Both the position numbers and the translations under genes were made by a program. Shown piece by piece: positions 3,683 to 53,851 of a stretch of 64,000 bases of DNA. How positions within the stretch are numbered: position 1 is the first letter of the stretch; each line of letters opens with the position of its first letter. The stretch lies in the NCBI GenBank assembly GCA_963767925.1, contig CAVYGB010000002.1, forward strand, positions 1,184,001-1,248,000, given 5' to 3'. Source of the stretch: an uncultured delta proteobacterium (GTDB lineage: Bacteria; Myxococcota_A; Polyangia; Fen-1088). Below the pieces are notes generated by a model. The model was given only the letters and a program-made list of their open reading frames with translations, did no database searches and had not been told where the DNA came from.

Positions 3683-4001
3683 GAGCGATCTCCTCGGGGG
3701 GGACTTCTACTTGGCATGGATGATTGGCACGAGGGGCTGGTCGCGGTAGCGGAGCGGGTTGGATGCTCCCACCCGGTCTCTCATTCTGACACCGTCCCTG
3801 ACACCATCCCCGATCCGGGCGCACCTGGCACGCGCACCGGCGGGAGGACCACACCCGATGCGGCCAACGCCGCAGCCTGAACGTCTGCTATGGGCGCGCA
3901 TCTGATCTGCGCAGAGTCCCTTTCACCTTAGATTTAAGGGTGGGGCGGAACCATACGCAAGCAGCTTTTACGAGGGCGACTGTACGCCTATGCTCGATGG
4001 G

Positions 4002-12774: not shown

Positions 12775-12920
12775 GAGGGCGCCTCCTACAGTAGAGAGCG
12801 GGGGCCAAAGTTGCATGTTTTGTACAACTCCCGCCCTGCGGGGCGATACCCGATTCGCGGCCCGCCTGGACTGCTTTTCGGGCCGCGGAGTGGGCGACCC
12901 GCATTCGCCCAGATTTCGGT

Positions 12921-19116: not shown

Positions 19117-19195
19117 GGGCCGACTCTATAAACAAGGGAAACTGCGGTCGAGACCCGGCGGGCGGTTACACTGGCGTTTCGTTCAGCTTCCCCCC

Positions 19196-31432: not shown

Positions 31433-33527
31433 TCATAGCGGTGAGCTTCGCGGGGATCTCGCCTGGCGTTCGCGCTCAGGCTTGTCGCCCGCGGTGGTGT
31501 GGTGCGGTGCACTGGCGGGCCGTGATGTGGCCGGGCAGCCGCTCAGGACACGACCGCCGGATGGACGGTCGGCCTGGGCTGTGACACGGGCCCCACGATC
31601 GGTCGCGCCTGCCCCGAAGGCAGGGTGCGCTTCCCGCCAGGGCTTGCTCAGACCCGGCAGATTGCGTAGCCAGAGCTCCACCGTCGCCAGCAGCCAGAGC
31701 TGATGCTCGTGGTCCGCCCCGCGCCTCGACGTGCTCGGCGAACACCCGCTCCACGGTCGCCGGCCTGAAGGTAGTCGCGGATGCGGGCCTCGGGCGCGAG
31801 CAAGAGGTCCCGCAGGTAGCCGCGGAGCTCCTTGCGGAACCAGGTACCCAGGGGAAGCCCGAAGCCCATCTTTCCCCGGCTCTGGATGGCCGGCGGCAGC
31901 AGGTCGGCAAACGCCTTGCGCAGGATGTACTTCGTGGTCCGCCCCCGCAGCTTGTAAGAGTCGGGGAGCCCGGCGACGTATTCGATGAGCGCGGTGTCCA
32001 GGAACGGTGACCTGGTCTCGAGCGCGTGGGCCATGCTCGTCCGGTCGACCTTCACCAGCAGGTCCTGGGGCAGATAGGTGTGGAAGTTGTGATGCGAGCG
32101 CCAGCGCCAACGCGGAGCGTCCCATCGCCCGCGGCGAAGAACTGTCGCTGGTACTGCAGGACGGACGCGGCAGCGACGCCCAGCTCCGGCCGCAGGATCT
32201 CGTCCAGCGTCGAAGGCGAAGTAGGAGTTCCAGCGGACCAGGCGGTCGCCCAGCGGCCGCTCGACCGCCGTCAGCAGCCGGCGGGCGCGGCTGGCGAGAC
32301 GTCCGGGAGCCCGTGCCTCGCCGGAATCAGGCGGGCCGCGCGGGCCCCCAGCCGCCGCAGCGGCGCGGGGAACCCGCTCGGTGACGGTGGCGGCCCAGAA
32401 ACGCAGGTACCCGGCGAACAGCTCGTCGCCGCCGTCGCCGTTGAGGGCCACCGTGACCTTCTCGCGGGTCAGCTGCGAGACCATGTAGGTCGGAATGGCC
32501 GACGAGTCCCCGAAGGGGCCGTCGTGCTGCCAGACCAGCTTCTCCACGAGGCTGAAAGTCGGCAGGGCGTGACCCGAAACTCGGTGTGGTCGGTGCCAAA
32601 TCGCTCCGCGGCCGTGCGGGCAAAGGCGGTCTCGTCGTAGCGGGCGTCTCCGGAGAAGCCGATGCGAGAAGGTGCGCACCCGCGGCCCGAGCTGGGCCAT
32701 CAGCCCGACCACGATGGTCGAATCGAGCCCGCCCGACAGGAACGCCCCGACCGGAACGTCCGCGACCAGGCGCTTGCGAACGGCCGTCGGTGAGCAGCTC
32801 CGGACCGCGCCTGATCGCCTCCTCTTCGCTCGGGGGCGTCGCCGGGCGGCTGGAAGTCGACCGACCAGTAGCGGCTGACCTGGGGCGTCGCCCCCGGCGG
32901 CGAGGCACCAGCCGATGCGCCGGGCGGAAGCTGCTGCGACGTCGCTGGTAGAGCGTCCCCGGCGGGGGCACGTAGCCGTAGGCCATCATTCCGGCCAGAC
33001 CGGTCGTGTCGACCTCGAGCGGCAGCCCGGCGGCAAACAGCGCCTTGATCTCGGAGGCAAACTGGAACCGTCCCTCCGAGCTCGCGTAGTAACAGCGGCT
33101 TCTTTCCCGATGCGGTCGCGGGCCAGCAGGAGCCGACGCGTCCGGGATGTCCCACAGCCCGAACGCGAACATCCCGTCGAGGCGGGTGGACAGCTCGTCG
33201 CCCCAGTCCTCGTAGCCGTGGACCAGGACCTCGGTGTCCGAGCGGAGCGGAAGCGGTGGCCCTGCCTCTCGAGCTCGCGCCGCAGCTCGCGGAAGTTGTA
33301 GATCTCGCCCGTTGAAGGTGACCCAGACCGTGCCGTCCTCGTTGCACATCGGCTGGGCCGCCGCCGGCGACAGGTCGATGACCCGCAACCGGGTATGGAC
33401 CAGGGTGGCACCCAGCCAGCTCCCGGGCCCCCTGACCATCGGGACCGCGGTGCAGGAGCGTGCCTTTCACCCGCGCAACCGCCTGCGCTCCGATCGGCTC
33501 TCCAACGCTTCCGAATATCCCGCACAT
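31433..33527 (-). CDS. asnB: Asparagine synthase-like amidotransferase (copy 1), many frameshifts
   Basis: MCGIFG, HRGPD, QPMCNEDG, DGMFAF, LSGGLDS, GDGGDELFAGY, KVDRTSMAHALETRSPFLD, KMGFG. The 3' end is approximate. Confidence 0.88.
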
Positions 33528-33859: not shown

Positions 33860-35041
33860 ATGCGCATCATCGATCGTCTGAACATCGGTGGCCCCGCCAT
33901 CCACGCCGTGGTGACCAGCAAGGGCCTGGATCGCACCCGCTTCCGCACGGTCCTGGTGATCGGTTCGATCGAGGCGAGCGAGGGTGACATGGCCTACCTC
34001 CTGGAGGAGGCGGGTGTCGAGGAGGTGGTTCGCATCCCCAGCCTGGGCCGGGAGATGCGGGTGCTGCGCGACCTCTCGACCCTCTGGCAGGTCGTGCGAC
34101 TCATGCTCCGGGAGCGCCCCCAGGTGGTGCACACCCACAAGGCCAAGGCCGGCGCCATCGGCCGGGCCGCGGCCCTGCTCTGCCGGGTCCCGGTGCGGGT
34201 GCACACCTTTCACGGCCACGTGCTGCGCGGCTACTTTGGCCCGGCCAAGACCCGCGTCTACCAGACGCTGGAGAAGCTCCTGGCCAGGCCATCGAGCCGC
34301 CTGGTGGTTCCCTCCCGCCGCCTCGCCGACGAGCTGGCGGGCGAGTTCCAGGTCGCCGACCGGGCGCACTTCGAGGTCATCCCCCTGGGCTTCGACCTCG
34401 AGCCCTTCGCCCGCGCCGATGGGCACCGGGGTCAGCTGCGCCGCGAGCTCGGCGGTCGGCCGCCGACGTGCCTCTGGTGGGAATCGTGGGCCGCATGGTG
34501 CCGGTCAAGGACCACCGCACCTTCGTCGCGGCCGCGGCCCTGCTGGCCGCGCGCCGCCCCGACGCCCAGCTCGTGTTCGTGGGGGCCGGCGAGCTCGAGG
34601 CGGAGGTGCGCGCCGACGTCGATCGCCGGGGCCTGACCGCGCGCGCGCACTTCCTGGGCTGGCGCCGCGACCTCGCCCGCATCTACGCCGACCTCGACGT
34701 GGTGGCGCTCTCTTCGCTGAACGAGGGGACACCGGTGTCGCTCATCGAGGCCATGGCCGCCGGTACGCCGGTGGTCTCCACCGCCGTGGGCGGCGTGCCG
34801 GACGTGCTCCGAGGTGGCGCGCGCGGCGGCCTGGTCCCCGTCGGCGACCCCGTCGCCCTGGCCGCCGCGCATCGAGCAGGCCCTGCTGCCCGAGGCCCGG
34901 GCCCGCGCCGTCGCCTTCCGCGCGCAGATCAGCGAGGAATACGGGGCCGCGCGGCTGTGCCGCCAGCTCGAGAACCTCTACGACGGCCTCCTGGTCGCTT
35001 CGGGACGGCTGGCCGGCCCGGTTCGCGCCCGGACCGGATGA
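33860..35041 (+). CDS. GT4 glycosyltransferase, frameshifted
   Basis: RLNIGGPA, HTHKAKAG, HTFHGH, GRMVPVKD, NEGTPVSLIEAM. The true start may lie further upstream. Confidence 0.88.
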
Positions 35042-35108
35042 GGAGCCAGCTCGAGCGAAGCGCCAGCGCGCGAGCCGGCTGGGGGCCCGGGCAACGGTGC
35101 GGGACCGC

Positions 35109-37155
35109 TCATCGGTTGCGGGCGATCGTCTCCTGGAGCGCTTCGTTCGAGAGCGAGTGGACACCGAGGCGACGACCCAGCTGACCCACCAGGTCGGCCC
35201 GAACGTGGCTGCGATCGTCGGTCTCGAAGGGATCGGTAGGCAGATGGAAGAGCTCGCTGTAGGCGAGGTGGACGTGATGGATGAGTTTCCAGCCGTCGCG
35301 GACGATGGCCACCTGGGGATCGCTCGGGGGCCGCGTGTAGAGAATCACCTCATCCGAGGGCTTGAAGGGCGGCCCGCCCAGAAGGGAAGCGACAAAGGGA
35401 CGCATCTCGTGGGGCGAGCCAGGTAGCACCTCGGAGGTCAGAGTTCGCGCCCAGGCGCCTGGCGACCAGGCGATCAGCGGCACCCGGACGGCTGCTTCCC
35501 GCAGCGACGTTCCATGGCGCTCGTGACCGGCCTCGTCGAGCTCCTCACCATGGTCTGCCATGACCAGCAGCAAAACGTCGGCCGCCCGGGACAGAGCCTT
35601 CAAACCGGCGGCGAGGCGGGCGACCTCGGCATCGGCACGACGGACCTCCGCGGCGTAAGCTCGCATGTGGTCGAAGACGAACATCGCCCCGGGGTGAGAG
35701 ACGTAAGGAGCGTGGGGATCGTAGTAGTGGACCCACAAGAAGGCGCGCTCGGGCCGCTGGTCGGCGCCGCGCAGCCAATCGAGCGCCCGATCGGTCACCT
35801 CGTCCGCCGTGGCGGCATTGGGGAGCTCGGAACGCGGCGCGAGGCTTTCGTCCACGGTGGCGAACGAGGACCGGATGCGCTCATTCTGTAGCAGGTGGTG
35901 GTGGGTGGTGATGGCGTGCGTGCGATAGCCGGCTCTCCCGACCAGCTCGCCCAGCGAGGTCCTGGGCGCCTCCTCGCCGCCAAGGTGCAAGGCGGCCATC
36001 GCGAGCGAGGTGATGGGAGGCGTCCGCACGTCCAGGCGGGCAGCGCCTTCGGACGCCAGACGCGTGAGGTTGGGGCAGATGTCGCGGAGCTCGGGACGGT
36101 CATGACGGCCGAGGCCGCAGCGGAAGGCATCGATGGTGACGAGGACGACGACCGGCGGGCCCTTTCCCACGACCGCGCTCGGAACCAGCGCCGGCGGTTG
36201 CGCCGGGGCGAGCGGCACCCAGCCAAGGCAATCGCGTCCTTTCCGCGACAGGGGGCGAGCCCCCGGGTCGGCGTCGTCGCAATCGCCCCCCGCCAGGCTC
36301 GCGCTGAACCCATCGCGGTCGCGATCGGTGGCCCGCCGGCCGGCCTCGACGAGCTGCCAGCTCAGCCCCCGGCGCGTCCGGGCGGCGGACACGGCGCTCG
36401 GCTCGACCTGGTTGCGCAACCAGCCTGGCAGCAACAGAAGGACGCCGACCACCAGCGCCCCGAGGGACAGCAGCCCCACCCGGCGGGTGGCCCGCAACAG
36501 GATGGTGACGCCAGCGGCGAAGCAGAACACGCCGCTGAACAGCGCCGCCCGTTCCAGGGCGGGATACCCCGGCGGCACGCCCCAGGCGGCCGTGGCGAAG
36601 GCGAGGAATCCGAGGCCGCAGAAGGCCGCCGCCGGCGCAAGGGACGGGTGCCGCTCGAGCCGGTCCCGGACCGAGGGGCGCCGGACAAGGCGATGGATGA
36701 GCAACGCCGACAGGAGAGCGACGGTCATCCCCAGGCCATAAGCCATTGCCGTCTTGGCTCCGAAGGGCGTGTCGGTGAGGAAGCGATTGGCCCCGTATTC
36801 GGCCGCGATCAGGACGGTCAGGGCGGTCACGCTACCCGGCCAGACCGAGACCGGCAGGATCCGGGCCCCGGTCGCAACGATCCAGCGGGTTCCCGGAAGC
36901 GATCCGATCAGCTCGAGCAGGGCGCTCAGCCCCAGGTGCAGGGGCAGGATCAGACCCAGCGTCAAGGCCACCGATCCGAGCGGCCCCGTCGCCGCGGCCG
37001 CGAGCACCGACAGCTCCGCCCCCAGCACACCGCCGAGCGCGATCCGACTCAGCGCCAGCAGGGAGAGGCTGGCCAGCGCAGCCGCCCCGGTCGTGCGCCG
37101 CCGCCGGAGCGACTGCTCGGCGGCCTCTGCCAGTGTGGAGCTCCGAGAGGGCATC
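35109..37155 (-). CDS. Membrane-anchored sulfatase/alkaline-phosphatase-fold protein
   Basis: About 7 TM helices, DRDRDGF/GGDCDDADP loop, VTIDAFR, HYYDPHAPY, ADHGEE, VPLI. Start uncertain (37155-37238). Confidence 0.8.
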
Positions 37156-40587: not shown

Positions 40588-42514
40588 ATGTGCGGCATTG
40601 CAGGAATCTACCGCTGGGGTCCGCGCTCGCGCGAAATGGCCGCTGACGACGCTCGCCGAGTGGCCGACATGAACCGGGCGCTGGCTCATCGAGGCCCCAA
40701 TGGCACCGGGTTGCTGGACGTCGGCGACGGGGCCGTGCTGGGGCACACCCGCCTTTCGATTCTAGATCTGTCCGAGGCCGCGACGCAGCCCATGCAGACG
40801 GAGGATCGGAGCGTATCGCTAGTCTTCAACGGAGAGATTTACAATTACCGGAGACTGCGGAGCCTCCTGGCTGCCGAGGGCGTCCGCTTCCGGTCGACGG
40901 GCGACACGGAGGTGCTCCTGCGCAGCCTTCAGCTGTACGCCGAGGGAGCATTGAGTCGGATCGACGGCATGTTCGCCTTTGCTGCTTTCGACGCTCGCCG
41001 GCGGAAATTACTGCTGGCTCGTGACCGCGTCGGCAAGAAGCCGCTCTTCGTCTACCAGGAACGCGAGGCCGTCGTATTTGCTTCCGAGCTCGGTGCGCTG
41101 CGGGCGGGGGCCGTCGAGCTGAGGCTGCGACAATCCGCCCTCTCGCAGTTCCTGGTTCGGGGATACGTGCCCGATCCGGAGACCCTGTGCGAAGACGTGG
41201 AACAGATTGCCCCGGGCGAGGCCGTGACCTTCGATGGCGGGGGTATCAAGCGGCGTTTTCACTACTGGCGCCACCCGTGGCTGCGCGAGGGTGGACCGGC
41301 TACCATCGAGGCAGAATCCTCGGAAAGCCGTCCATGGCATTCGAGAGCGTCTCCGGGCCGCGGTGGCCGTCCGCCTCGACAGCGACGTACCGGTAGGGAC
41401 CTTCCTCTCCGGCGGCGTGGATTCGGCGGCGGTGACGGCGGTGGCCAACGAGATAGCTGGCCGCAAGCTGGAGACCTTCACCATCGGGTTTGCGGGGACG
41501 ACCGGAGACGAGACCGCCGCGGCCCGCGAAACCGCCGCCTTCCTGGGCACCAACCACCGACAACAGGTGCTCTCGCCAGAGACGTTCGATCTCCTCGGCC
41601 CGCTGATCGCCAGGACCGGTGAGCCCCAGGGCGATCCATCGCTGATCCCCACCTACCTGGTATCCCGGCTGGCTCGCCAGCACGTGACCGTGGCTCTCAG
41701 CGGGGATGGTGGGGACGAGTTGTTCGCCGGCTATGGACGCTTCCTGCTGGCATTCGGCTCCGCGTTCGCCGGGAAGGCGGGCCTTCTCCGCTGGCCGCAA
41801 CGACTTCTGGAGCAGGTCAAGGAAGGTCCAGGGGCGCCGCGTTTCCTCCGACAGATCAAGCGCCTGATGCGGGCCTCGTCCAATGGACCAGCCGGCACAC
41901 TCGCGGAATGGTCCGGAGGCTCCCGCTGGCGCGACGTCGAGCTGATGCTGGGCCGTCGCCTGGACCTGGGAACCCTCAGCGCGCCCGAACAGGGCGCCTA
42001 CGACGGGGCACGCGCGAACGGTGCCGGCCACCTCCACGCTCTGCTCGTCGCAAATTTCCTTACCTACCTGCCCGGCGATATCCTCGTAAAGGTCGATCGG
42101 GCTTCGATGGCCAACGGGCTGGAGGTGCGTTCCCCCTTTCTGGACACCGCCATGATCGAATATGCGGCGTCGCTCGCACCCCTCCTGCTAGCCCGCGGTC
42201 TCAACCTCAAATGGATCCTGAAAAAGGCCCTCACGGGCCTGGTACCCGCGACCGTCCACGCTCGACGAAAACAAGGATTTCAGGCGCCCGTCAGCGATTG
42301 GTTCAGGGGCCCGGGCGGGCTCCTTCTGGCGGATCGTCTCACGACGTCTTCGGCTCACATCGGTTCGGCGCTCGATTCCGCCGCGGTAGCCACCCTGGTC
42401 CGTCAGCATCAGGCCGGCGCGGAAGATCATGGGTTCACTCTTTTTCGGTTGCTGGCCCTGGAAGAGTGGTTGAAGTGGCTCAACACCCCGGCAGCAGCGC
42501 AGCGGGCAGCCTGA
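40588..42514 (+). CDS. asnB: Asparagine synthase-like amidotransferase (copy 2), frameshift near 41300-41340
   Basis: MCGIAG, HRGP, FNGEIYN, ARDRVGKKPL; then LSGGVDS, SGDGGDELFAGY, KVDRASMANGLEVRSPFLD, KQGF. Confidence 0.92.
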
Positions 42515-44747: not shown

Positions 44748-45842
44748 GTGTACAGTATCAAGATCATCGGAGCGGGGTCGATCGGGAACCATCTGGCGAA
44801 TGCGGCTCGTAGCCGCAACTGGAAGGTGACCCTCACCGACATCGACCCGCAAGCGCTCAAGCGTGCCAGGGAGAGTATCTATCCGAGCCGCTACGGCTCG
44901 TGGGACGAGGCCATCGCGCTCAAAGACACCCGGGCAGCCATGTCGGATCCGGCAGACGTGGTGTTCGTGGGCACGCCGCCCGACAGCCACTTGCCCCTGG
45001 CCCTGGAGGTGCTGGAGGCGGCGCCACCTCGCGCGCTGGTCATCGAGAAGCCGCTGTGTGGCCCCGACCTGGAAGGCTGCGCGACGCTGTGGGAGCGGGC
45101 CCGCAGCCTGGGGCTGTTTGTCGGGGTCGGTTACAACCACGTGCTGGGAAGCAATACCGTGGCTGCCGAGAAGCTTCTGGCAGAGCGGCCGATTGGCCCC
45201 ATCGAGACCATCTCTTCGCGGACGCGCGAGCACTGGGGGGGCATCTTCAAGGCTCATCCCTGGCTCTCCGGTCCTGCCGATTCGTACCTGGGGCACATCC
45301 GGCGGGGCGGCGGGGCCATCGGGGAGCATTCCCATGCGCTCAATCTCTGGCAGCACTTCGCCCACCTGGTCGGGGCGGGGCGGGTGGCCGAGGTCTCGTG
45401 CGCCCTGGATGTGGTCAAGGACAAGACCGTTGAATACGACCGTGTCTGTCTGATGAGCCTCCGGACTGAGGAGGGGCTGGTGGGCGACGTCATTCAGGAC
45501 GTGGTGACCGCACCTACCGACAAATCGCTCCGTATTCAGGGCAAGGGGGGGTTCCTCGAGTGGTACGTCAACTACCAGCCGGGGGCGGACGCAGTGATCA
45601 TGGGCACCGGTGAACAGGCTCAGCCGCCAGTCCTGCTGCCCAAGACCCGCGCCGACGACTTCAAGGCCGAGGTGGACCACATTGCTGGTGTGCTCTCGGG
45701 GTCGGTGAAGGGCTCGCCCATCTCCCTGCAGCGTGGCCTTGACACCATGATGGTGATCGCGGCGGCGCTGAAGTCGCACCAGACGGGGCGACGGGTTTCC
45801 ATCGACTGGCAGCAAGGCTATCAACCGGCCGCGCTTCGTTAA
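44748..45842 (+). CDS. Gfo/Idh/MocA-family oxidoreductase
   Basis: IIGAGSIG, GTPPDSH, IEKP, VGYN, GGGAIGEHSH; the GTG start at 44748 is inferred. Confidence 0.88.
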   Translation: MYSIKIIGAGSIGNHLANAARSRNWKVTLTDIDPQALKRARESIYPSRYGSWDEAIALKDTRAAMSDPADVVFVGTPPDSHLPLALEVLEAAPPRALVIEKPLCGPDLEGCATLWERARSLGLFVGVGYNHVLGSNTVAAEKLLAERPIGPIETISSRTREHWGGIFKAHPWLSGPADSYLGHIRRGGGAIGEHSHALNLWQHFAHLVGAGRVAEVSCALDVVKDKTVEYDRVCLMSLRTEEGLVGDVIQDVVTAPTDKSLRIQGKGGFLEWYVNYQPGADAVIMGTGEQAQPPVLLPKTRADDFKAEVDHIAGVLSGSVKGSPISLQRGLDTMMVIAAALKSHQTGRRVSIDWQQGYQPAALR

Positions 45843-45863
45843 CAACCACGTCGGTAACAAAAA

Positions 45864-47399
45864 ATGCGGAAGAAACCCTTCGATTTCTCGAACCTCTTCA
45901 TCTACGACCTGGCCAACAACCATCAGGGCGATGTCGAACACGCGGCGAACGTGATTCGAGGGATCGGCCGGGTGAATGCTGCCGCCGGCGTGCGCGGAGC
46001 TCTGAAGTTCCAGTTCCGGCAGCTCGAGACATTCATCCATCCCGACTTCCGAACTCGCACCGATCTCAAGTACATAAAGCGATTCATGGACACGCGATTG
46101 CCTCAGAAGGCTTTCGCCGACATGGCCGATCTCATCCGGGAATGCAAGATGTTGACCATGTGCACTCCTTTCGACGAGGAGTCGGTCGACATCATCTGTC
46201 AGATGGACCTGGATATCATCAAGGTCGCCAGCGCCTCGGCCGACGATCGCCCCCTGCTGGAGAAGATCGCCCGGGTGAACAAGCCCATCGTGGTCTCCAC
46301 CGCGGGCCTCCGCACCGAGGAGATTGACTGGCTGGTCAACTTTCTGGAGAGCAACCGGGCAGAGTTCGCAGTCATGCACTGCGTGGCGGAATATCCGACG
46401 CCCGACAACAAGCTGCAACTCAACCAGATTCAGTTCCTGTCCGAGCGCTACCGGGGGGTCCCGATCGGGTGGTCGACACATGAGAATCCAGACAACCTGG
46501 ATCCCATAAAGATTGCCTACGCAGCCGGAGCCCGTCTGTTCGAGCGTCATGTTGGCTTGCAGACCCCTCAGCACAAGCTGAACGAGTATTCGTCCACGCC
46601 CGAGCAGATCGAGCGCTGGCTGGGGGCCCACCAGCAGGTGAAGGCCATGATGGGCGCCTCCGAACGCGCGCCATCCTCGGTGGCCGAGCGCCAGACCCTG
46701 CGCGACCTGAAGCGGGGAGTCTTCGCCAAGAGGGACATCACCAAGGGAAACGAGATCTCACGGGATGACGTCTTTTTCGCCATGCCCGTGCAAGGTGAGC
46801 AACTCCTGAGCAGCCAGTGGCGCCCAGGCATGATCGCCAACGCCGACTACCGAGCCAAGGCCGCCCTGCCCAAGACTCTCGGGTTCCAGGAGGTCACCGA
46901 CGAGCAGTTGATCTACCAGATCATGCTGCAAGTGCGGGGCATGCTGAACAAGGCCAACATCCACATCAACGAGGATGCCAGCATCGAGATCTCGCATCAC
47001 TACGGCCTCCGCAGGTTCCGTGAATACGGGGCGGTGATCATTACCTGTGTCAACCGCGGCTACGCGAAAAAGCTCGTCATCCAGCTTCCCCGGCAGAAGC
47101 ACCCCTACCACTATCACGAGCAAAAGGAAGAGACCTTCCAGCTACTGGACGGCGACCTGGAGATCGTGAAAGAGGGCGAGCGGACCTCGTTGCGCGAGGG
47201 CGACACATTCCTTGTCGAACCGCGTGCCTGGCACAAGTTCCATACGCTGGCCGGAGCCATCGTCGAAGAAGTGTCCACTACCCATAGCAACAATGACTCG
47301 TTCTACGAGGATCCGGAGATAGCCAAGCTGAGTCGGGAGGAGCGCAAGACCAAGGCCGACGGCTGGCTGGCGTATTTCCGATCCAGACATGCGCTTTGA
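45864..47399 (+). CDS. NeuB-family ulosonate synthase with SAF domain and C-terminal cupin
   Basis: ANNHQGD, KFQ, TPFD, KVAS, HCVAEYP, GWSTHE, FERH; cupin HPYHYHEQKEETF...WHKF...EEVST. Confidence 0.9.
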   Translation: MRKKPFDFSNLFIYDLANNHQGDVEHAANVIRGIGRVNAAAGVRGALKFQFRQLETFIHPDFRTRTDLKYIKRFMDTRLPQKAFADMADLIRECKMLTMCTPFDEESVDIICQMDLDIIKVASASADDRPLLEKIARVNKPIVVSTAGLRTEEIDWLVNFLESNRAEFAVMHCVAEYPTPDNKLQLNQIQFLSERYRGVPIGWSTHENPDNLDPIKIAYAAGARLFERHVGLQTPQHKLNEYSSTPEQIERWLGAHQQVKAMMGASERAPSSVAERQTLRDLKRGVFAKRDITKGNEISRDDVFFAMPVQGEQLLSSQWRPGMIANADYRAKAALPKTLGFQEVTDEQLIYQIMLQVRGMLNKANIHINEDASIEISHHYGLRRFREYGAVIITCVNRGYAKKLVIQLPRQKHPYHYHEQKEETFQLLDGDLEIVKEGERTSLREGDTFLVEPRAWHKFHTLAGAIVEEVSTTHSNNDSFYEDPEIAKLSREERKTKADGWLAYFRSRHAL

Positions 47400-48003
47400 A
47401 GTCGTCATCTTCGACTTCGACGGCACGCTGGTCGACTCGGCCCGGGCCAAGTGTCAGGCGTTCTTCTCACTATTTCCTTCTTCTGACGAACATCGCAGGG
47501 TGGTAGCCTCCGTGCTCGAACGAGATCCCGACGGTTCTCGCTACCGGGTCATACCGCTGATGTTCCAGGAGATGGTCGACCGAGGACTGAGCTTGCCCGC
47601 TCACCACAGCGCGAGCGAGCGGATCGAGGCTTACGGCGAGCTGGTCCTGGCGGCGGTCCGACAGGCGCAGGAAATTCGCGGCGCCGGCGAGTTGCTCCAG
47701 GGACTGCGCGGGCGCTGCACCGCCTACATAAGCTCGAACACTCCGGAGCCGGCGCTCCGCAGCTCGGTCGCCGCCCGGGGTTGGAACGGTTTGGTCGCGG
47801 GCGTGTTTGGCTATCCCCGCGACAAGGCCAGCACCGCTCGGGAGGTGATCCATCGCCACGGCTGCCCGCCCGCCAGAGTGGCCGTGGTGGGCGACGGCGA
47901 GAGCGACGCCCACTCGGCCCACAGTAACGGCTGCGCCTTCTTTCTCGTCCGGCAGGGCGAGGATCTGCGGGAAGTCACGAGAGCACTGGGAGACCAGGAT
48001 TGA
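47389..48003 (+). CDS. HAD-family phosphatase
   Basis: DFDGTLVDS, SS, K, VGDGESD; overlaps both neighbours. Confidence 0.9.
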   Translation: MRFEVVIFDFDGTLVDSARAKCQAFFSLFPSSDEHRRVVASVLERDPDGSRYRVIPLMFQEMVDRGLSLPAHHSASERIEAYGELVLAAVRQAQEIRGAGELLQGLRGRCTAYISSNTPEPALRSSVAARGWNGLVAGVFGYPRDKASTAREVIHRHGCPPARVAVVGDGESDAHSAHSNGCAFFLVRQGEDLREVTRALGDQD

Positions 48004-49652
48004 TCAACGGCAGGCGGGTCTTGCTGGTAGTACCAGCCCGCGGCGGCAGTCAGGGCATCAAGCTCAAGAACCTGCAGACGGTGGCCGGAACTCCTCTCGT
48101 CAGTTTGGCGGGACGGGTGGCGCAGCAACTGGAGTTCGTGGATCGGGCCATCGTGTCTACCGACCATCCGGAGATTGCGCGGGTGGCGGCCAGCGCCGGC
48201 CTGGCGGCGCCGTTCGTGCGGCCCGAGGAGCTGTCCGGGCCGGTGATTAGCGACTGGCAGGTGCTCTCGCACGCGCTGGCCGAAGTGGAGCGGCTCGACA
48301 AGGTCTTCTACGACATCGTCCTCATGCTGCAGCCCACGTCTCCCGGTCGGACCGCAACGCATGTGCGGGATACAGTCGGCCGGTTGATCGAAGGCCAGTT
48401 CGACGCCGTCTGGACGGTCAGTCCAACCGATACCAAGGCACACCCGCTCAAGCAGCTTCTGGTCGAGGCGGACGGGCGCCTGGAATATTACGCCGCGGAG
48501 GGCGCCAAGATCGTCGCCCGGCAGCAGCTGAAGCCCGTCTATCACCGCAATGGCGTCTGTTACGCCTTCACCCGGAAGGCGCTGGTCGAGGAAAAGACGA
48601 TCAAGGCCACGCGCACGGGCGCGCTGATAATCGACACCACGCTGGTCAATATCGACACTCCTCAGGACCTGGAGCTAGCGAACCGCGTCGCAGCCGGGGC
48701 GGCTCCGATACCCGAGGCGACCGCATCGAAACCCGAGGGAGCGTCGCCCCCGGACCGCGCGGCAACCCTCTGCCCGGTGTGTTCGAGCGACCAGGCGGAG
48801 AACATCTATGCCGGCCCGGTACGGGCCGGGGTTTTCGGCACGTTCGTGCCAGGTCGAATTGCCCGCTGCGCGAGCTGTGACGTGGACCAGCTCCACGTGG
48901 CACAGGCCCTGGACGATGAGGTCTACCGGACCGGTGAATACCGAGAGATGGTAGGTGAAAAGAAGGAGGCTCGGGCATTTCTGGAGCTGCACGACCGCGA
49001 GCAGCTGGAGAAGCTGCCGTTCGTCAGCCCTTATCTTCGGCGCGGCTCGGTCGTGGCCGACATAGGGTGCGGCGGCGGCGCCTTCCTGGATCTGGTGAAA
49101 GGCGTGGCGGGCAGCACCATTGCCGTCGAGCTAACGGAGTCATTTCATGCGTCGCTGCGCAGTCGCGGGCACCACGTGTTCTCGCGGGCGGACGATTGCA
49201 TCGGGTCGCATGCCGCTTCTGTGGATCTGGCGGTCTCGTTCAGTGTGATCGAACACGTACCCGATCCCTTGCCGTTCTTGAGCACGATCCAAGCACTGCT
49301 CAAGCCTGGCGGCACGGTGGTCATTAGCACGCCCAACCGCAACGACGTGCTCATGAAGCACGGCCTTCCGGAGTACCGAGCCTTCTTTTATCGTTTGGTC
49401 CACCGCTTCTACTTCGATGCAGGGTCGCTCACGCGAATCTGCGAGCGAGCGGGCCTGGAGGTGCTGGAGGTCCGGTACCGTCAACGGTTCGGCTTCAGTA
49501 ACTTCGCGAACTGGCTAGCCCAGAGACGTCCAACCGGTCGCGGCGCCGAACTGCTGCTGAGCCCCGACTTCGACAAGATCTGGCGCTGCGAGCTGGAGCG
49601 CGACGGAATGGCTGACTACCTCTATGTGGTGGCTCGCAGGAAAGGCGCCTGA
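48000..49652 (+). CDS. NeuA-type acylneuraminate cytidylyltransferase fused to a SAM methyltransferase
   Basis: PARGGSQGIKLKN, VSTD, LQPTSP, NIDTPQDL; linker; CPVC...CASC, DIGCGGG, SVIEHV, LKPGG. Confidence 0.88.
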   Translation: MINGRRVLLVVPARGGSQGIKLKNLQTVAGTPLVSLAGRVAQQLEFVDRAIVSTDHPEIARVAASAGLAAPFVRPEELSGPVISDWQVLSHALAEVERLDKVFYDIVLMLQPTSPGRTATHVRDTVGRLIEGQFDAVWTVSPTDTKAHPLKQLLVEADGRLEYYAAEGAKIVARQQLKPVYHRNGVCYAFTRKALVEEKTIKATRTGALIIDTTLVNIDTPQDLELANRVAAGAAPIPEATASKPEGASPPDRAATLCPVCSSDQAENIYAGPVRAGVFGTFVPGRIARCASCDVDQLHVAQALDDEVYRTGEYREMVGEKKEARAFLELHDREQLEKLPFVSPYLRRGSVVADIGCGGGAFLDLVKGVAGSTIAVELTESFHASLRSRGHHVFSRADDCIGSHAASVDLAVSFSVIEHVPDPLPFLSTIQALLKPGGTVVISTPNRNDVLMKHGLPEYRAFFYRLVHRFYFDAGSLTRICERAGLEVLEVRYRQRFGFSNFANWLAQRRPTGRGAELLLSPDFDKIWRCELERDGMADYLYVVARRKGA

Positions 49653-49677
49653 TAGGCGGCTGGCGGCGCCGCATTCG

Positions 49678-50631
49678 CTAGCGGGAGGCGGCCGGGGCGA
49701 AGCAGACGAACAGGGTGTCGGTGGTTCCGTTTGATTCGAGGTACTCGCGGTACTGAGGGTCCAGAGCTTTGGCCAGGTCCGCGAAGACCTCTCCCGCCCC
49801 CGGTCGCCTGGTTGCCAACCAGTTGAGATGGTTGGCCAGGCCATAGCGCTGCATGCCCTGCGATCCGAGAATGCGCTGACCAGCGCTCTCGAGCAGTCTG
49901 CGGATCGACGTAGCCGAGTAGATGAACGGGTGCTGTGCCTGGAAGTAGAAGTCCTTGAATTCTTCGATGGCGTACAGGGACAGGAGGGGATCGGACAGAG
50001 CGGGGATCTCGATGACCAAAACTCCGTCGCCCGTCAAGAGGCCAGCCAGCTTCTCCAACTCCGCGAAAGGATCTTCGAAATGCTCGAAGACGTGAAACAG
50101 GCAGATTAGGTCGAACTTTCGCGAGCCGAGATCTTCGACCCCTGCGGTCATGTTCAGACTTCGGGCGAGAGCCTCGGAACGGTGTGGGGCGCTAGGCTCC
50201 ACGCCCGAGCAAGCCGCTCCTGGCATCCCCTCGACCAGTTTGCCCAGGAATGTCCCGTCGGAAGCGCCGACCTCCAGCACCGTCGCTGGCGGTCGCTGGC
50301 AGTGGGTCGACACAAGCGTCTGCAGGCACTCGAAGCGACGGTTCAAATAGCGCTCCTGAACCTTGGGGTCCTTGACGCCTAGCTTCTTGCTCCGCGGTAC
50401 GTAGCTCCGGTAGTCCACCCGAGGACGCGGATGTATCACAGCAAAATCTCGGCCCTCGTTCAGGTAAACGGCGTGGGTGGCGTCCTCATAGATCCGGTTG
50501 TGGAAGCGGGTGAAGACCTCGTCCTCGAAAAAGGACAATCCCAGCGAGCGCCCGGTGAAGCTTCCCTCCAGGCTCGAAGGCGTTGGCAGGCCCTGGGCCT
50601 TGGCCGGCGCAAGGTGGTCAGAGAGGTCCAT
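49678..50631 (-). CDS. Class I SAM methyltransferase
   Basis: LEVGASDG, GVEPS, FHVFEH, IEIP. Confidence 0.85.
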   Translation of the reverse strand: MDLSDHLAPAKAQGLPTPSSLEGSFTGRSLGLSFFEDEVFTRFHNRIYEDATHAVYLNEGRDFAVIHPRPRVDYRSYVPRSKKLGVKDPKVQERYLNRRFECLQTLVSTHCQRPPATVLEVGASDGTFLGKLVEGMPGAACSGVEPSAPHRSEALARSLNMTAGVEDLGSRKFDLICLFHVFEHFEDPFAELEKLAGLLTGDGVLVIEIPALSDPLLSLYAIEEFKDFYFQAQHPFIYSATSIRRLLESAGQRILGSQGMQRYGLANHLNWLATRRPGAGEVFADLAKALDPQYREYLESNGTTDTLFVCFAPAASR

Positions 50632-50969
50632 CACCGATGATTATGACGAAACTCGTCGGCCTGTCTATCCCCGCGAATGGTCCTGCTGAGTCTTGAGCAT
50701 GCCGGCTGGCATCTCGGTTCCGCAGGGCAAAGCGTCGGTCAGCATCGGCGCAGACGGCTTCTCGGCGACCTCGGGACGCGGCACGGCCGCATCCCATCCC
50801 GAGAGGGCGGTATTTCCGCGCAGGTCGGACTCAAATTCGGCATCGCAGATTTGGCCACACCGATTGGGCCACGCAGCTTGGCCCAATGTTCGGCCCACCC
50901 CCGGGTACCAAAGCTTCACCAGGCTGCCCCAGTGGGCCGAAATAGTATAAGCTGGGGCGTGAGGTTCGC

Positions 50970-52361
50970 GTGAACAGGCTCAATCTGTTGTTCCCTGTCG
51001 AGACGATTAACCGAGAACTCGACTTTCGTTTGTTCCTGGCTGTGATGTGCGCTACGCCCCGGAACCAGATTTTCATCGGCCAGCACGACGCAGTCTTTGG
51101 CCTGTCCCGTTTCACCGAGGGCGGTGTCTACGTCGGAAAGCACATCTTTCGCGATCGATTCCCTATCGAAACCGGCGCCCGCTATCGCGAGATAAAGGGG
51201 CGGGGCTATTCGCTCGTACATCTGGACGAAGAAGGGGCCATCTACTACGGCGGACCTCGAGAGTGGGAGGCAGCCCTGAACGCTCGCGTGGACACGAGCC
51301 TCATGGACGAGGAAGACTACGTCTGCACCTGGGGCGATTTTCAACTCCAGCACTTCAAGCGGAAGAAGCCGAAAAACCTGGAGAACATCCGCAACACTGG
51401 TCACCCTCGGTTCGATCTCTTCAAACCGCTCTATCGCAGCTTCTTTCAGGGGGAGCTGCGCAAGCTCGCGGGATACGGGCGGTTCGTTTTGATAAACACG
51501 AAACTGGCACCCGTGAACCCGGGACTGGGAAGGGAAGATGCTTTCGCCCATTATCGCGGCTACGACCGTTCCAATCCGACTGTACGCATCGGGTTCATCG
51601 AGGCCTACGCCCACTACACCAAGATCCTCGTGAATTTTGTCAGTCTGATCAACCGGATGAGCATCGACTTTCCGGATTTCAACTTCGTCATCCGGCCCCA
51701 TCCATCCGAGGACTTGCAGTACTATCGGACCATATTTCAGGGAATCGGCAACGTGCACGTCGTTCATAGGGGAAGCATTCCGGCGTGGCTGTTCGCGTGC
51801 GAGGTGATGGTTCACGACGGCTGCACCACGGGTGTCGAGGCTCATCTCGCGGGGAACAACATCATCAACTTCAAGTCCCTGGAGAACGAGCGTTACGATT
51901 CGTTGCTTCCCAATGCGTTCGGGACCAAGTGCGCCAACCAGGAAGAGGTATTCGCGGCCCTACGCAGGCTGCGTGACGGAGAAAAGCTGCCCACATCGAT
52001 TCCGACCGACACCGCGCGATCATTGATCAGCAACCTGGATCAACCCTCCTTCCCTCGGCTGCTGTCCGTGATTGACGAAAGCCAGGAAAGAACGCTCACG
52101 CGACAACGCGGGCGCCTCGGGTTCCGCCGCAACGAATTCAAGCTCTACGCCCTAGGGCAGCGCGCTGAAAAGATCGGCCGTGCGGCTGTACGGGCGCTCT
52201 TCCCAAAGAAGATGCGTCGCCATCGCGCGTATAGCAGCATGTTTTACGGTCTAAACCGGGACGACCTGGATACCAAGCTCACCGAGGTCAGCCGAATCGT
52301 CAAGCGCCGGGTCGAATGGGAGCTCTTGAGCCCCGACCTCCTGACGGTCTGGCAAGCCTAG
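50970..52361 (+). CDS. Surface carbohydrate biosynthesis protein, probable GT-B fold
   Basis: PVETINRELD, LDEEG, TGHPRFDL, IRPHPSE, HDGCTTGVEA; resembles the TIGR04396-type family (from memory, not searched). Confidence 0.75.
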   Translation: MNRLNLLFPVETINRELDFRLFLAVMCATPRNQIFIGQHDAVFGLSRFTEGGVYVGKHIFRDRFPIETGARYREIKGRGYSLVHLDEEGAIYYGGPREWEAALNARVDTSLMDEEDYVCTWGDFQLQHFKRKKPKNLENIRNTGHPRFDLFKPLYRSFFQGELRKLAGYGRFVLINTKLAPVNPGLGREDAFAHYRGYDRSNPTVRIGFIEAYAHYTKILVNFVSLINRMSIDFPDFNFVIRPHPSEDLQYYRTIFQGIGNVHVVHRGSIPAWLFACEVMVHDGCTTGVEAHLAGNNIINFKSLENERYDSLLPNAFGTKCANQEEVFAALRRLRDGEKLPTSIPTDTARSLISNLDQPSFPRLLSVIDESQERTLTRQRGRLGFRRNEFKLYALGQRAEKIGRAAVRALFPKKMRRHRAYSSMFYGLNRDDLDTKLTEVSRIVKRRVEWELLSPDLLTVWQA

Positions 52362-52435: not shown

Positions 52436-53851
52436 TCACTTCTTCGCCTCCTTCAGCATCAGCCCCAGGCCAGAACCGGGCAGCGTTCGATGCAGGATCC
52501 AGCTCGCACCGGTGTAGACGGCCAGGAACACGAGGCCGTAGCCCATCAGAGGCAGCCAGGTCGGGGGCGCGGCAGGTAGCAGCAGCACGATTGCCATCGC
52601 CAGGAGGGAAGCGACGGTGGGAGCGACGAAGGGGAGGACGAGGTCGCGCCAACGGAGGTCGAGAGCCGAACGAAGTGCCGCGGCCCAGGCGGGCATCGCC
52701 AGCGCGGCGGCGAGGACCACGGCCCAGGCGGCGCCCGCCGTGCCGTAGAGCCGCGTACCCGGATACAGCAGACCAAGAAGGGCGACCACCTGGATGAGCT
52801 TCAGCGCGAAGTCCGCGCGGGTGTGCCCCAGCGCGCGCAGCACGGGCGGCGCGGTGTCGATGATCGCCCGCAGCAGGGCGGCGACCGCCAAAATCTGCAA
52901 GGGCGGAACGGCCGGCGTCCACCCCGGGCCAAGCAGCAGCGGTAGCAAGATCGAACCGAACAGGATGAGCCCAACCGTGACCGGCAAGATGATGGTCGCA
53001 ACCAGCCCGAGCACGGCTCCCAGGTTGGCGACGACGCGGCTGCGGTCGTGCTGGATCTTCGCGAACGCGGGGAAGGCCACGCGAGCGACGATCCACTGCA
53101 GACTCAGAGGCCCCTCGGTGGCGAGCTGGTATGCCATCCGGTATTGTGCCAGGGGCTCGGTTCCCAGCACGCGGCCGGTCACCGCCTTGTCGCTGGTCTC
53201 GAGGACGAAGCTCGCGACGGTGTAGCCGGTCAGCCATTTGGTGTACTGGAACATCTCGCGCGCCTTGGCCAGATCGAAGCCCAGCCGGGCCCGCACAGGT
53301 GAGATCAGGTAGCTCACTGCGGTGCGGGTGGTGAACCCCGCCACCAGACCGAGCACCGGACCCCAGATGTTGCGCAGCCAGAACGAGAGGGCGATAGTCA
53401 CGCAGGCGTACACCAAGGCTTCCACCGCGTAGTTGTAAAACAGCCGATCGAAGCGCAGCTCGCGCGTGAGCACGGCGGTGCTGATGCTGTGAAAGCCCAT
53501 CACGACATAGGACAGGCCCAGCACCCGCAAGGCAGTGGTGGCCTCCGGGACCCGAAAGTAGGCGCACCAGTAGGGCGCGAGCGCGAACTCCACGCCGTAG
53601 ATCATAAGGGCGCGTACGATCTGGGCGGTCCAGGCGGTGTCGAGGTACGGCCTGGGATCCTGTTTCATCTGCACTAGGGCTGCGTTGAAGCCCAGCGCCG
53701 TGATCGCCTGCAGCCCGGCGTCGGCGATGAGGATGACACCGAAGGCGCCCAGCTCGGCTTGCGGCAGGAGGCGCGCGACGAACAGCGTTGCGATTACCCC
53801 GAGAGCGCGCGTGAACAGACGTAAAAATAGCGTCCATCGGGCCCCGGTCAT
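52436..53851 (-). CDS. wzx: Wzx flippase (WzxC-like)
   Basis: About 12 TM; ARLL...G, DTAWT, RELRF, DKAVTGRVLG, VAFPAFAKIQ, LLLGPGW. Confidence 0.9.
   Translation of the reverse strand: MTGARWTLFLRLFTRALGVIATLFVARLLPQAELGAFGVILIADAGLQAITALGFNAALVQMKQDPRPYLDTAWTAQIVRALMIYGVEFALAPYWCAYFRVPEATTALRVLGLSYVVMGFHSISTAVLTRELRFDRLFYNYAVEALVYACVTIALSFWLRNIWGPVLGLVAGFTTRTAVSYLISPVRARLGFDLAKAREMFQYTKWLTGYTVASFVLETSDKAVTGRVLGTEPLAQYRMAYQLATEGPLSLQWIVARVAFPAFAKIQHDRSRVVANLGAVLGLVATIILPVTVGLILFGSILLPLLLGPGWTPAVPPLQILAVAALLRAIIDTAPPVLRALGHTRADFALKLIQVVALLGLLYPGTRLYGTAGAAWAVVLAAALAMPAWAAALRSALDLRWRDLVLPFVAPTVASLLAMAIVLLLPAAPPTWLPLMGYGLVFLAVYTGASWILHRTLPGSGLGLMLKEAKK

Follow-up and report, generated by a model that had tools for sequence, protein, structure and literature searches.

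The closest described counterparts of the locus analysed here are the CMP-Kdn pathways of Bacteroides thetaiotaomicron (BT1714/BT1713) and Prymnesium parvum, in which, according to the excerpted account, mannose-6-phosphate is condensed with PEP to Kdn-9-phosphate, which is dephosphorylated to Kdn and activated to CMP-Kdn (PMC6200933). These pathways resemble our locus in combining a NeuB-family synthase with a phosphatase and a CMP-transferase and in lacking amino-sugar steps; their product is a deaminated nonulosonic acid. In Serratia marcescens KL1/KL2, KDN is described, in the available parts of the report, as arising from neuA and neuB only, and deletion of neuB abolished capsule KDN (PMC9000132); the NeuB of these strains carries an extra sugar-isomerase-type domain, different from ours, that parallels the NeuB-cupin fusion seen here. 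A further parallel is found in the ElaA/ElaB/ElaC systems for 8-epimerisation of CMP-legionaminic acid in Acinetobacter baumannii KL49 and Vibrio vulnificus, where a Gfo/Idh/MocA gene likewise lies beside the CMP-transferase gene in a nonulosonic acid locus and its product, ElaA, was proposed to oxidise C8 of CMP-Leg5,7Ac2 (PMC13656337, as excerpted).

The window, meaning the whole 64,000-nt stretch of DNA that was analysed, contains four same-strand genes at 44748-49652. The first-pass annotation had described them as tightly coupled, with the last three overlapping, and this was confirmed: a 21-nt gap separates the dehydrogenase from the synthase gene, the synthase and HAD genes overlap by 11 nt, and the HAD gene and NeuA fusion by 4 nt. 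Its domain calls were also borne out by Pfam scans. The first gene (44748..45842, plus strand) encodes a Gfo/Idh/MocA NAD(P)-dependent sugar dehydrogenase, hereafter GFO (PF01408, E 8.8e-12; PF22725). Its longest ORF runs from 44562; a GTG start at 44748, giving 364 aa, was preferred because GGAG lies 7 nt upstream and the median homologue is 367 aa long. The second gene (45864-47399, plus strand; PF03102, E 5.3e-41; Cupin_2, 1.4e-10; Lyx_isomer, 4.2e-8) encodes a 511-aa fusion of a NeuB-type PEP-condensing synthase domain with a TIM barrel and a SAF-like domain (residues 1-340; 45864..46883; PF03102) and a D-lyxose/D-mannose-isomerase-type cupin domain (residues 341-511; 46884..47399; PF07385). 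It is followed on the plus strand by a 204-aa HAD-superfamily phosphatase with a cap insert (47389..48003; PF00702, PF13419; E 1.4e-10) and a 550-aa NeuA-methyltransferase fusion (48000-49652; CTP_transf_3, 1.1e-14; Methyltransf_23, 6.8e-25). The latter comprises a NeuA-type cytidylyltransferase (CMP-ulosonate synthetase) domain (48000..48734; PF02348) and a class I SAM methyltransferase domain with a four-Cys stretch (48735..49652; PF13489, E 6.8e-25).

The interval originally delimited, to 52361, also holds two genes that its title did not name: a convergent, 318-aa second methyltransferase (49678..50634, minus strand; PF13489, E 9.7e-19) and a 463-aa TIGR04396 surface carbohydrate biosynthesis protein (50970..52361, plus strand; TIGR04396). 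A Wzx-type flippase gene lies next to these (52436..53851, minus strand; PF13440, E 1.2e-57; PF01943), and Pfam scans of the window ORFs placed Wzy_C at 24742-26736 and a WecA-like gene at 28910-30313; by this domain content, the module sits within a predicted Wzx/Wzy glycan locus. Neither an Epimerase_2/NeuC domain nor a DegT-type aminotransferase was found by Pfam in the 57 window ORFs of at least ~100 aa, in agreement with the earlier observation that the window lacks NeuC and a sugar aminotransferase.

We propose, with a probability of about 0.55, that these genes constitute a self-contained module for the synthesis, activation and transfer of a nonulosonic acid that belongs to the Kdn family and contains no nitrogen. 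The proposal is based on domain identities, conserved catalytic residues, gene order and the separation of the synthase from canonical ones; from these we infer the substrate, step order, phosphorylation state and product. The cupin domain, as a Mn-type ketol-isomerase, would convert a ketose into an aldose with manno configuration at C2/C3, most likely fructose or fructose-6-phosphate into mannose or mannose-6-phosphate, and the NeuB domain would condense this manno-type aldose with PEP. With a phosphorylated sugar, removal of the phosphate would fall to the HAD protein, after which the NeuA domain would convert the acid to the CMP-sugar. In this organism, the NeuA-fused methyltransferase and its paralogue may add methylation, and the TIGR04396 protein would transfer the acid to a surface glycan built by Wzx/Wzy. 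GFO may act early, on the sugar that is fed to the isomerase, or late, on the completed acid or CMP-acid, as ElaA was proposed to do for 8-epi-legionaminic acid. The product is best read as Kdn or a nitrogen-free acid closely related to it, carrying methylation in this organism. A nitrogen-free acid is favoured because no route for nitrogen was evident, DegT genes being present in just 7 of 80 related loci and none in the window. The end product is probably not plain Kdn, since the most likely task of GFO is to alter one hydroxyl in its oxidation state or stereochemistry.

At least 492 species genomes from many phyla encode the fused NeuB-cupin synthase. Synteny was assessed in the 53 loci that had at least 3.5 kb on each side. 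GFO adjoins NeuB-cupin in all 53 of these complete loci, and a cytidylyltransferase gene is present in 52, a HAD gene in 40 and a TIGR04396 gene in 38. The genes occupy a single strand in the order (TIGR04396-)GFO-NeuBcupin-HAD-CTP; the order of the four genes first noted in the window is thus kept, and its recurrence in dozens of unrelated genomes places the arrangement far beyond chance. A myxobacterial surface glycan had been suggested as the setting. Given its wide distribution, the module is no curiosity confined to myxobacteria, and was probably acquired sideways here. No close relatives of NeuB-cupin were found on plasmids in PLSDB, Sinorhizobium megaplasmids included; all 147 matching records shared <60% identity with the fused synthase, and among the matches listed identity was at most 36%. 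Further fusions occur, one joining NeuB, cupin and HAD in a single protein (P0248) and another joining GFO, NeuB and cupin (P0058/P0511), the latter on one MAG contig and with a 90%-identical relative that is split. Our literature search yielded no published description of a NeuB-cupin fusion, consistent with the first-pass view of a candidate for an undescribed system; the module, although spread over hundreds of bacterial species, has apparently never been studied.

The trio of synthase, HAD phosphatase and CMP-transferase pointed out in the first-pass annotation is not the constant core, as HAD is lacking in 13 of the 53 complete loci and the dehydrogenase in none. GFO is an obligatory partner in the module. 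In an alignment of 28 homologues (A2), its G-A-G-S-x-G-N fingerprint, D31, E100-K101-P102 and E193-H194-S195-H196 were invariant. Its AF2 model (pLDDT 95.4) retrieved only generic sugar and cyclitol dehydrogenases with Foldseek, at 14-20% identity, and neither profile nor fold searches indicated a specific function. PDB searches with the GFO protein and with its profile did not retrieve ElaA, whose structure may be absent from the copy searched. A Kdn route that is already known works without a dehydrogenase, whereas GFO is the most constant partner gene here, which weighs against our proposal. The HAD motifs DxDGT, S/T, K and GDxxxD were conserved in alignment A4, and the protein has a cap insert and a phosphoglycolate-phosphatase-like build, with weak matches to those models. 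In contrast, the Bacteroides Kdn-9-phosphate phosphatase is a capless KdsC-type enzyme. No synthase column separated 41 HAD-bearing from 12 HAD-less loci. The phosphorylated-precursor route is thus possible but weaker than had been assumed, because HAD is missing from about a quarter of loci and is capped.

These observations bear on a plain CMP-Kdn route of the Bacteroides/Prymnesium type, in which the cupin would convert fructose-6-phosphate to mannose-6-phosphate, NeuB would yield Kdn-9-phosphate, HAD would release Kdn, NeuA would form CMP-Kdn, and GFO would be peripheral. We consider this rather unlikely. The route is established in those organisms, its synthase, phosphatase and CMP-transferase share one operon here, P0248 physically joins three of the parts, and there is a match (E 3e-5) to 7zvm, a small cupin that bears the name 'mannose-6-phosphate isomerase'; HAD-less loci would be accounted for by sugar phosphatases being redundant in function, as mentioned in the excerpted account (PMC6200933). 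The greater constancy of GFO over HAD and the capped build of the latter argue against it, as does the full-length resemblance of the cupin to D-lyxose isomerases, which use unphosphorylated sugars. In addition, mannose-6-phosphate is normally already in cells. It counts against our own proposal as well that most bacteria make this sugar phosphate, so that a dedicated isomerase hints at an aldose rarer than mannose.

The suggestion that the cupin isomerises a ketose to supply the aldose was strengthened. The C-terminal 170 residues match the D-lyxose isomerase fold (PF07385 Lyx_isomer, 33.1 bits vs a cut-off of 20.8), and Foldseek aligned the domain with 2y0o and 7nzo-7nzq (E ~1e-8, 24-26% identity, ~163 columns). 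Residues H416, H418, K421, E423, H457, E469 and D478 align with the metal ligands and catalytic residues of D-lyxose isomerase, every one of which is kept (H75, H77, K86, E88, H143, E156 and D163 in TsLI), and are invariant or nearly so in the family alignment A1 (H-x-H, K-x-E-T-F, H, E, D). The domain is thus predicted to be a full D-lyxose/D-mannose-type ketose-to-aldose isomerase. It shares fold, metal ligands and catalytic Lys/Glu/Asp with YdaE of B. subtilis (2y0o) and TsLI of Thermofilum (7nzo), but these are free-standing catabolic dimers, whereas the cupin is fused behind a synthase; it also lacks a six-residue insert that 2y0o has between H-x-H and K-x-E. D-lyxose isomerases convert D-fructose and D-mannose into each other (PMC10165151; PMC8378251, both as excerpted). 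Counting against our proposal, the isomerases with the nearest structures are specific for lyxose or prefer it; a C5 substrate and a C8 product would be in keeping with this.

An eight-carbon acid would arise if the cupin converted D-xylulose to D-lyxose and NeuB condensed this with PEP to a 3-deoxy-octulosonic acid, an isomer of Kdo, for subsequent CMP activation. We regard this as improbable, even though D-lyxose isomerases provide both the closest structures and the Pfam model, TsLI has <2% activity on mannose according to the excerpted report (PMC10165151), and the cytidylyltransferase has weak Kdo-cytidylyltransferase matches. That domain scored 114.3 bits against PseF (TIGR03584; cut-off 205.7) vs 42 bits against KdsB, and its PDB matches were likewise CMP-Neu5Ac synthetases (6ifd, 1.6e-24; 1eyr, 3.5e-16). 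It also speaks against this reading that, to our knowledge, six-carbon aldoses are the substrates of every NeuB-family synthase characterised. The transferase, too, is related to a family associated with nonulosonic acids: the TIGR04396 protein (279.4 bits vs a cut-off of 125) partially matches the BFO_1060 glycosyltransferase (E 4.7e-16), and its D-E-E-G (D/E-D/E-G) and R-P-H-P-x-E motifs are conserved in 28 homologues, making it a likely CMP-ulosonate transferase.

The NeuB domain matched PF03102 with 141 bits but fell well below the cut-offs for Neu5Ac synthase (TIGR03569, 141.3 vs 399.65) and PseI (TIGR03586, 125.3 vs 340.25). H206 and H229 align with both His of the NmNeuB 'sdH' and 'erH' motifs. 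Its top PDB match was 3g8r (E 2e-90, 307 bits), followed by SpsE 1vli (2e-23); identity was 44-55% to 3g8r and 20-24% to NmNeuB, CjPseI and BsSpsE. A branch with SH-aLRT 99 parts the domain, in a separate clade with 3g8r, from six labelled canonical synthases, so that it stands apart from the Neu5Ac and Pse references, in a set labelled by annotation rather than by characterised enzymes and comprising neither LegI nor any other Leg reference, animal NANS or Bacteroides BT1714. The 3g8r entry, an unstudied structure, is a 350-aa protein of Chromobacterium violaceum ('probable spore coat polysaccharide biosynthesis protein E') that lacks a cupin, and its depositors' function name is just 'probable' or 'putative'. 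It is very improbable that the module makes a canonical amino nonulosonic acid (Neu5Ac, Leg or Pse) from precursor genes elsewhere in the genome: although the precursor search was confined to the window of a 2.26-Mb contig, some homologues carry the JGI labels 'CMP-N,N'-diacetyllegionaminic acid synthase' and 'N-acetylneuraminate synthase', and a DegT gene lies inside the cassette in a few loci (e.g., L049), these scores, identities and tree placement, the rarity of DegT, the one aminotransferase cluster found, and a fused ketol-isomerase with no role in such routes all argue against it.

For the Kdn-family product that we favour, methylation had also been suggested. It is predicted for the present organism, with its fused methyltransferase and a paralogue (32% identity over 200 aa to fusion residues 246-550), but appears confined to it and close kin. 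Of the 120 homologues listed, 4 have the methyltransferase fused to NeuA, the window's own protein included, and a related methyltransferase lies in 6 of 80 loci. Weak PDB matches of the fused domain were UbiG (7e-9) and the sugar C-methyltransferases TcaB9 and KijD1 (7e-5).

Compared with known systems, the module differs from the Bacteroides/Prymnesium pathway, which was compared by its description, the BT1714 sequence being outside the tree, in possessing a fused isomerase and a dehydrogenase, and in a phosphatase that is dispensable in about a quarter of loci. The domain fused to NeuB in S. marcescens is COG1082, a xylose-isomerase-like TIM barrel, not a cupin; no domain of this type was found by Pfam in 12 odd-length representatives of the NeuB-cupin clade. 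As the excerpted Serratia report describes neither GFO nor HAD, we treat neuA-neuB as an analogue of the module and not as an established relative. ElaA is partnered by an SDR reductase, ElaC, whereas our module has no conserved SDR partner. We know of no genes assigned to the Sinorhizobium fredii polysaccharide that contains 5-O-methyl-Kdn. This sugar, which reportedly occurs in that polysaccharide, is a nonulosonic acid that carries a methyl group, contains no nitrogen and decorates the glycan of a bacterial surface, much like the product proposed here.

The stretch at positions 44748-52361, described in the first-pass annotation as an unusual four-gene ulosonic-acid module, was found to contain the four genes named, but the gene total proved to be six, all of them intact. 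The first encodes a dehydrogenase of the Gfo/Idh/MocA family (GFO; 44748-45842, forward strand). Its longest ORF begins at 44562, and the start was placed at the GTG at 44748, which has a GGAG 7 nt upstream and yields a protein of 364 aa that fits the homologue median of 367 aa. It is followed on the same strand by a single 511-aa protein in which a NeuB domain precedes a cupin at the C terminus (45864-47399), a HAD hydrolase (47389-48003), and a 550-aa NeuA-type cytidylyltransferase fused to a class I methyltransferase (48000-49652). Genes two to four overlap by 11 nt and 4 nt, as had been noted from the sequence. The remaining two genes encode a second methyltransferase (49678-50634, reverse strand) that is 32% identical to the NeuA-fused methyltransferase, and a TIGR04396 protein (50970-52361, forward strand; 279.4 bits against a cut-off of 125). 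Neither a NeuC-type epimerase nor a DegT protein was found among the 57 ORFs scanned, which bears out the earlier reading that the window holds no NeuC or sugar aminotransferase.

The module is surrounded by a Wzx/Wzy surface-glycan locus that includes a flippase, a Wzy_C protein, a WecA-like transferase, and GT4 enzymes, together with MBOAT/GDSL acylation genes, two AsnB-like amidotransferases, two sulfatase-family proteins, and five methyltransferases in all. The G+C content is 59-66% at 38-60 kb of the window (38000-60000) as against 70-75% in the rest. The window synthase is 76-77% identical to genes of Rhodospirillaceae and Dongiaceae and 52% identical to that of the sole Myxococcales locus, and the nearest proteins to a housekeeping-type helicase (18974-21742) belong to Polyangia/Myxococcales (3/3 of the organism-named proteins among the 120 matches listed). 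Given the low G+C content, the alphaproteobacterial kin of the synthase, and the Polyangia/Myxococcales-like helicase, the 38-60 kb glycan island was probably acquired laterally. Four genes of the window, encoding two AsnB-like amidotransferases, a GT4 glycosyltransferase, and an acyl-CoA dehydrogenase, are each split across two frames (40588-42514, +; 31648-33439, -; 33860-35184, +; 3990-5879, +) and represent either assembly frameshift errors or pseudogenes. A 259-aa NAD-dependent epimerase/dehydratase ORF (30529-31308, reverse strand) matches positions 1-209 of a 332-position GDP-mannose dehydratase model and is probably truncated. The window also encodes a 2063-aa protein (6625-12816, reverse strand) with four HisKA, four HATPase_c, two receiver, GAF, and PAS domains, that is, four histidine kinases in a single chain.

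The NeuB domain belongs to the PF03102 family (141.1 bits; cut-off 22.1) and has a TIM-barrel plus SAF fold, with Foldseek matches to NeuB, PseI, and SpsE structures at E-values of 1e-19 to 3e-35. Residues H206 and H229, invariant in 18 sequences, line up with the histidines of the 'sdH' and 'erH' motifs in 1xuu, which we take to be the metal-binding residues of NmNeuB. The domain scored far below the equivalog cut-offs for N-acetylneuraminate synthase (TIGR03569, 141.3 against 399.65) and pseudaminic acid synthase (TIGR03586, 125.3 against 340.25). In a PDB search, the best match was 3g8r (307 bits), an unstudied Chromobacterium protein, while the characterised SpsE, NmNeuB, and CjPseI scored 63-86 bits. 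A search of 1.84 billion representatives returned a synthase clade of 229 clusters (50% identity, E ≤1e-30). The cupin was present in 101 of the 150 cluster representatives listed and in 92 of the 98 that reach at least 450 aa; among the same 150, 21 of the 29 mid-length representatives (330-449 aa) were without it. For a tree of 72 rows, computed by a quick search under LG+G4, we took the window protein with 5 close homologues, one in three of the cupin-bearing representatives, all cupin-less representatives of at least 330 aa, and 6 references. The references come from six of seven plasmid stretches (the unannotated L087 being left out) and are canonical synthases labelled by PGAP or AMRFinder annotation only and not experimentally characterised. 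A branch with SH-aLRT support of 99 separated 66 clade members from these 6 annotation-labelled synthases, and fused and unfused forms were interspersed. The placement called for in the first-pass annotation thus set the clade apart from labelled canonical NeuB/PseI, against references that are annotation-labelled and include no LegI, NANS, or BT1714. Judged by sequence, the NeuB-cupin proteins are a large, separate synthase clade, and the synthase falls outside the Neu5Ac and Pse enzymes.

The cupin belongs to the D-lyxose/D-mannose isomerase family PF07385 (33.1 bits; cut-off 20.8). In an AF2 model of the NeuB-cupin protein (pLDDT 75), the C-terminal 170 residues match the D-lyxose isomerase structures 2y0o (B. 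subtilis YdaE) and 7nzo-7nzq over ~163 columns (Foldseek; target TM score 0.58-0.62, E ~1e-8). In the 2y0o alignment, residues H416, H418, K421, E423, H457, E469, and D478 fall on H75, H77, K86, E88, H143, E156, and D163 of the Thermofilum D-lyxose isomerase TsLI; by the residue list in PMC8378251, H416, H418, E423, and H457 would be the Mn ligands and K421, E469, and D478 the catalytic residues. Across the family these residues vary little or not at all; farther out in the clade, Arg frequently replaces the Lys, and Gln may stand in for one His. Enzymes of the D-lyxose isomerase family are reported to interconvert D-xylulose and D-lyxose as well as D-fructose and D-mannose (PMC10165151, PMC8378251). 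From its fold and residues, the cupin is predicted to be a real ketol-isomerase; the earlier suggestion that it isomerises a ketose to an aldose is upheld as a predicted activity by the D-lyxose-isomerase fold and the retention of all catalytic residues.

Searches with the fused synthase gave 6874 homologues at E ≤1e-10 among 7999 scored, and all 120 homologues listed were NeuB plus cupin, 64-95% identical to the window protein. The genome scan found at least 492 loci or species genomes with the fused synthase; the best 80 of the 492 loci came from Alphaproteobacteria, several former deltaproteobacterial orders, Bacillota, Kiritimatiellia, Chloroflexota, Actinomycetota, and Marinimicrobia. No close relative was found on plasmids, where all 147 matching records were below 60% identity. 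Another unusual NeuB context lies on a Methylomagnum ishizawai plasmid (L083, 1625-7237), where a short NeuB-family protein adjoins a HAD-IIIA hydrolase and has an SDR, a class III aminotransferase, and a transketolase-like pair that is split as further neighbours.

Neighbours in the best 80 loci were counted by tblastn (at least 50% coverage, E ≤1e-8). GFO was found in 74, the cytidylyltransferase in 71, HAD in 62, TIGR04396 in 52, and a relative of the fused methyltransferase in 6. In the 53 loci flanked by 3.5 kb or more on either side, the same cassette recurred, so that the conserved synteny sought in the first-pass annotation was found: GFO was present in 53/53, the cytidylyltransferase in 52/53, HAD in 40/53, and TIGR04396 in 38/53, with GFO, HAD, and cytidylyltransferase together in 40/53 and all four in 30/53. 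The genes lie on one strand in the order (TIGR04396-)GFO-NeuBcupin-HAD-cytidylyltransferase, and in HAD-less loci the synthase is followed directly by the cytidylyltransferase gene. The module is a family and not a one-off. A GFO-NeuB-cupin fusion was considered as strong Rosetta-stone evidence and was downgraded, since it was seen on a single MAG contig, and in a relative with 90% identity the fusion is split. A HAD-less GFO-NeuBcupin-cytidylyltransferase cassette in Candidatus Spongiihabitans (L044, 12660-21284) is followed immediately by six tandem TIGR04396 paralogues. Other recurring neighbours in the best 80 loci were an MsbA-like ABC exporter (22) and an Elm1-like protein (11). Three sulfotransferase families also recurred near the cassette, in 12, 9, and 7 of these loci, which suggests that the acid is often part of sulfated polymers; this agrees with a report of KDN and sulfated polymers together in sludge (PMC10483923).

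The dehydrogenase has the PF01408 and PF22725 domains, and its Rossmann fingerprint, E-K-P motif, and C-terminal alpha/beta domain place it in the Gfo/Idh/MocA family. Neither G8-A-G-S-x-G13 nor E100-K101-P102 varies among 28 sequences, and the acidic residue after strand 2 is kept. A more specific function was sought by single-sequence and profile PDB searches and by AF2 (pLDDT 95) plus Foldseek, which returned generic family matches only, at 14-20% identity; the protein is equally close to dozens of sugar and cyclitol dehydrogenases. In the profile search, dozens of other GFO enzymes matched at least as well as YjhC (E 2.4e-6) and RgNanOx (4e-4), and ElaA was not among the matches.

The HAD protein keeps motifs I-IV in 22 sequences (D9 and D11 at least 90% conserved; T118; K146; G168-D169...D173 invariant). 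KdsC-type phosphatases are capless, whereas this protein carries a cap insert, with ~100 residues between motifs I and II, and so falls outside the KdsC/Kdn-9-P phosphatase subfamily; its NCBIfam matches were sub-threshold and mostly to phosphoglycolate-phosphatase-type models. In one homologue (P0248), NeuB, cupin, and HAD form a single fused protein. The cytidylyltransferase belongs to CTP_transf_3 (55.3 bits; cut-off 22.6), is nearest to CMP-Neu5Ac synthetases (6ifd, 1.6e-24; 1eyr, 3.5e-16), and scored below the PseF equivalog cut-off (114.3 against 205.7). Its fusion to a methyltransferase is rare, occurring in 4 of the 120 homologues listed, the window protein included. The TIGR04396 protein had no PDB match by sequence. 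In 28 sequences it has D-E-E-G with E88 invariant and an invariant R242-P-H-P-x-E247, in agreement with D/E-D/E-G and H-P, presumably the two motifs of bacterial GT-B sialyltransferases, and it is a candidate sialyltransferase-like enzyme.

In the pathway that we propose, a ketose would be converted to a manno-type aldose on the fused isomerase, condensed with PEP, dephosphorylated if needed, activated with CMP, methylated in the window organism, and transferred by the TIGR04396 protein. A comparison of 41 HAD-bearing with 12 HAD-less loci gave no synthase column at ≥85% in one set and ≤35% in the other; since no column tracks the presence of HAD, a phosphorylated and a free-sugar route are both possible. 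The sole aminotransferase cluster near the cassette was found in 7 of the best 80 loci. At a Bdellovibrionales locus (L049, 11554-14400), a 336-aa protein and a DegT aminotransferase lie between synthase and cytidylyltransferase and could point to an aminated version of the pathway. The lack of a conserved nitrogen step points to a product of the Kdn family. We favour a modified or epimeric relative over plain Kdn itself, because GFO is the most constant partner of the synthase, yet we know of no Kdn route that needs a dehydrogenase. A bolder and tentative reading, to which we give a probability of roughly 0.3, is that the NeuB-cupin clade and its obligatory GFO make an undescribed nonulosonic acid. 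This acid might be a Kdn stereoisomer, which a rare ketose, e.g., tagatose(-6-P), could yield once the dehydrogenase has driven an epimerisation, or else a keto or C-methylated form of Kdn.

On bacterial surfaces, nonulosonic acids serve as decorations that influence how hosts, phages, and immune systems recognise the cell. To our knowledge, the sole characterised bacterial Kdn route is that of Bacteroides. If the product is indeed an undescribed acid, this module and not the Bacteroides-type route would be the main genetic source of the widespread environmental and sludge 'KDN' signals. In one study of granular-sludge polymers, KDN was reported as the second most abundant nonulosonic acid, and its authors state that they could not tell KDN from Neu5Ac synthase genes (PMC10483923). 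With the module solved, an entire class of surface sugars would be recognisable from a genomic marker, and a new sugar might come to light. A synthase that produces its own aldose from a ketose is a testable biochemical idea, and the dehydrogenase is an obligatory part of the module. None of the papers reached by our literature searches describes the isomerase fusion, the obligatory dehydrogenase, or the separate clade of synthases; the kind of chemistry is already known. Two precedents bear on the proposed pathway. For ElaA, which like GFO is a Gfo/Idh/MocA enzyme, oxidation of CMP-legionaminic acid at C8 has been proposed (PMC13656337). The other is reported in Serratia marcescens, in which KDN is made by NeuA and a NeuB with a different fused isomerase-type domain (PMC9000132).
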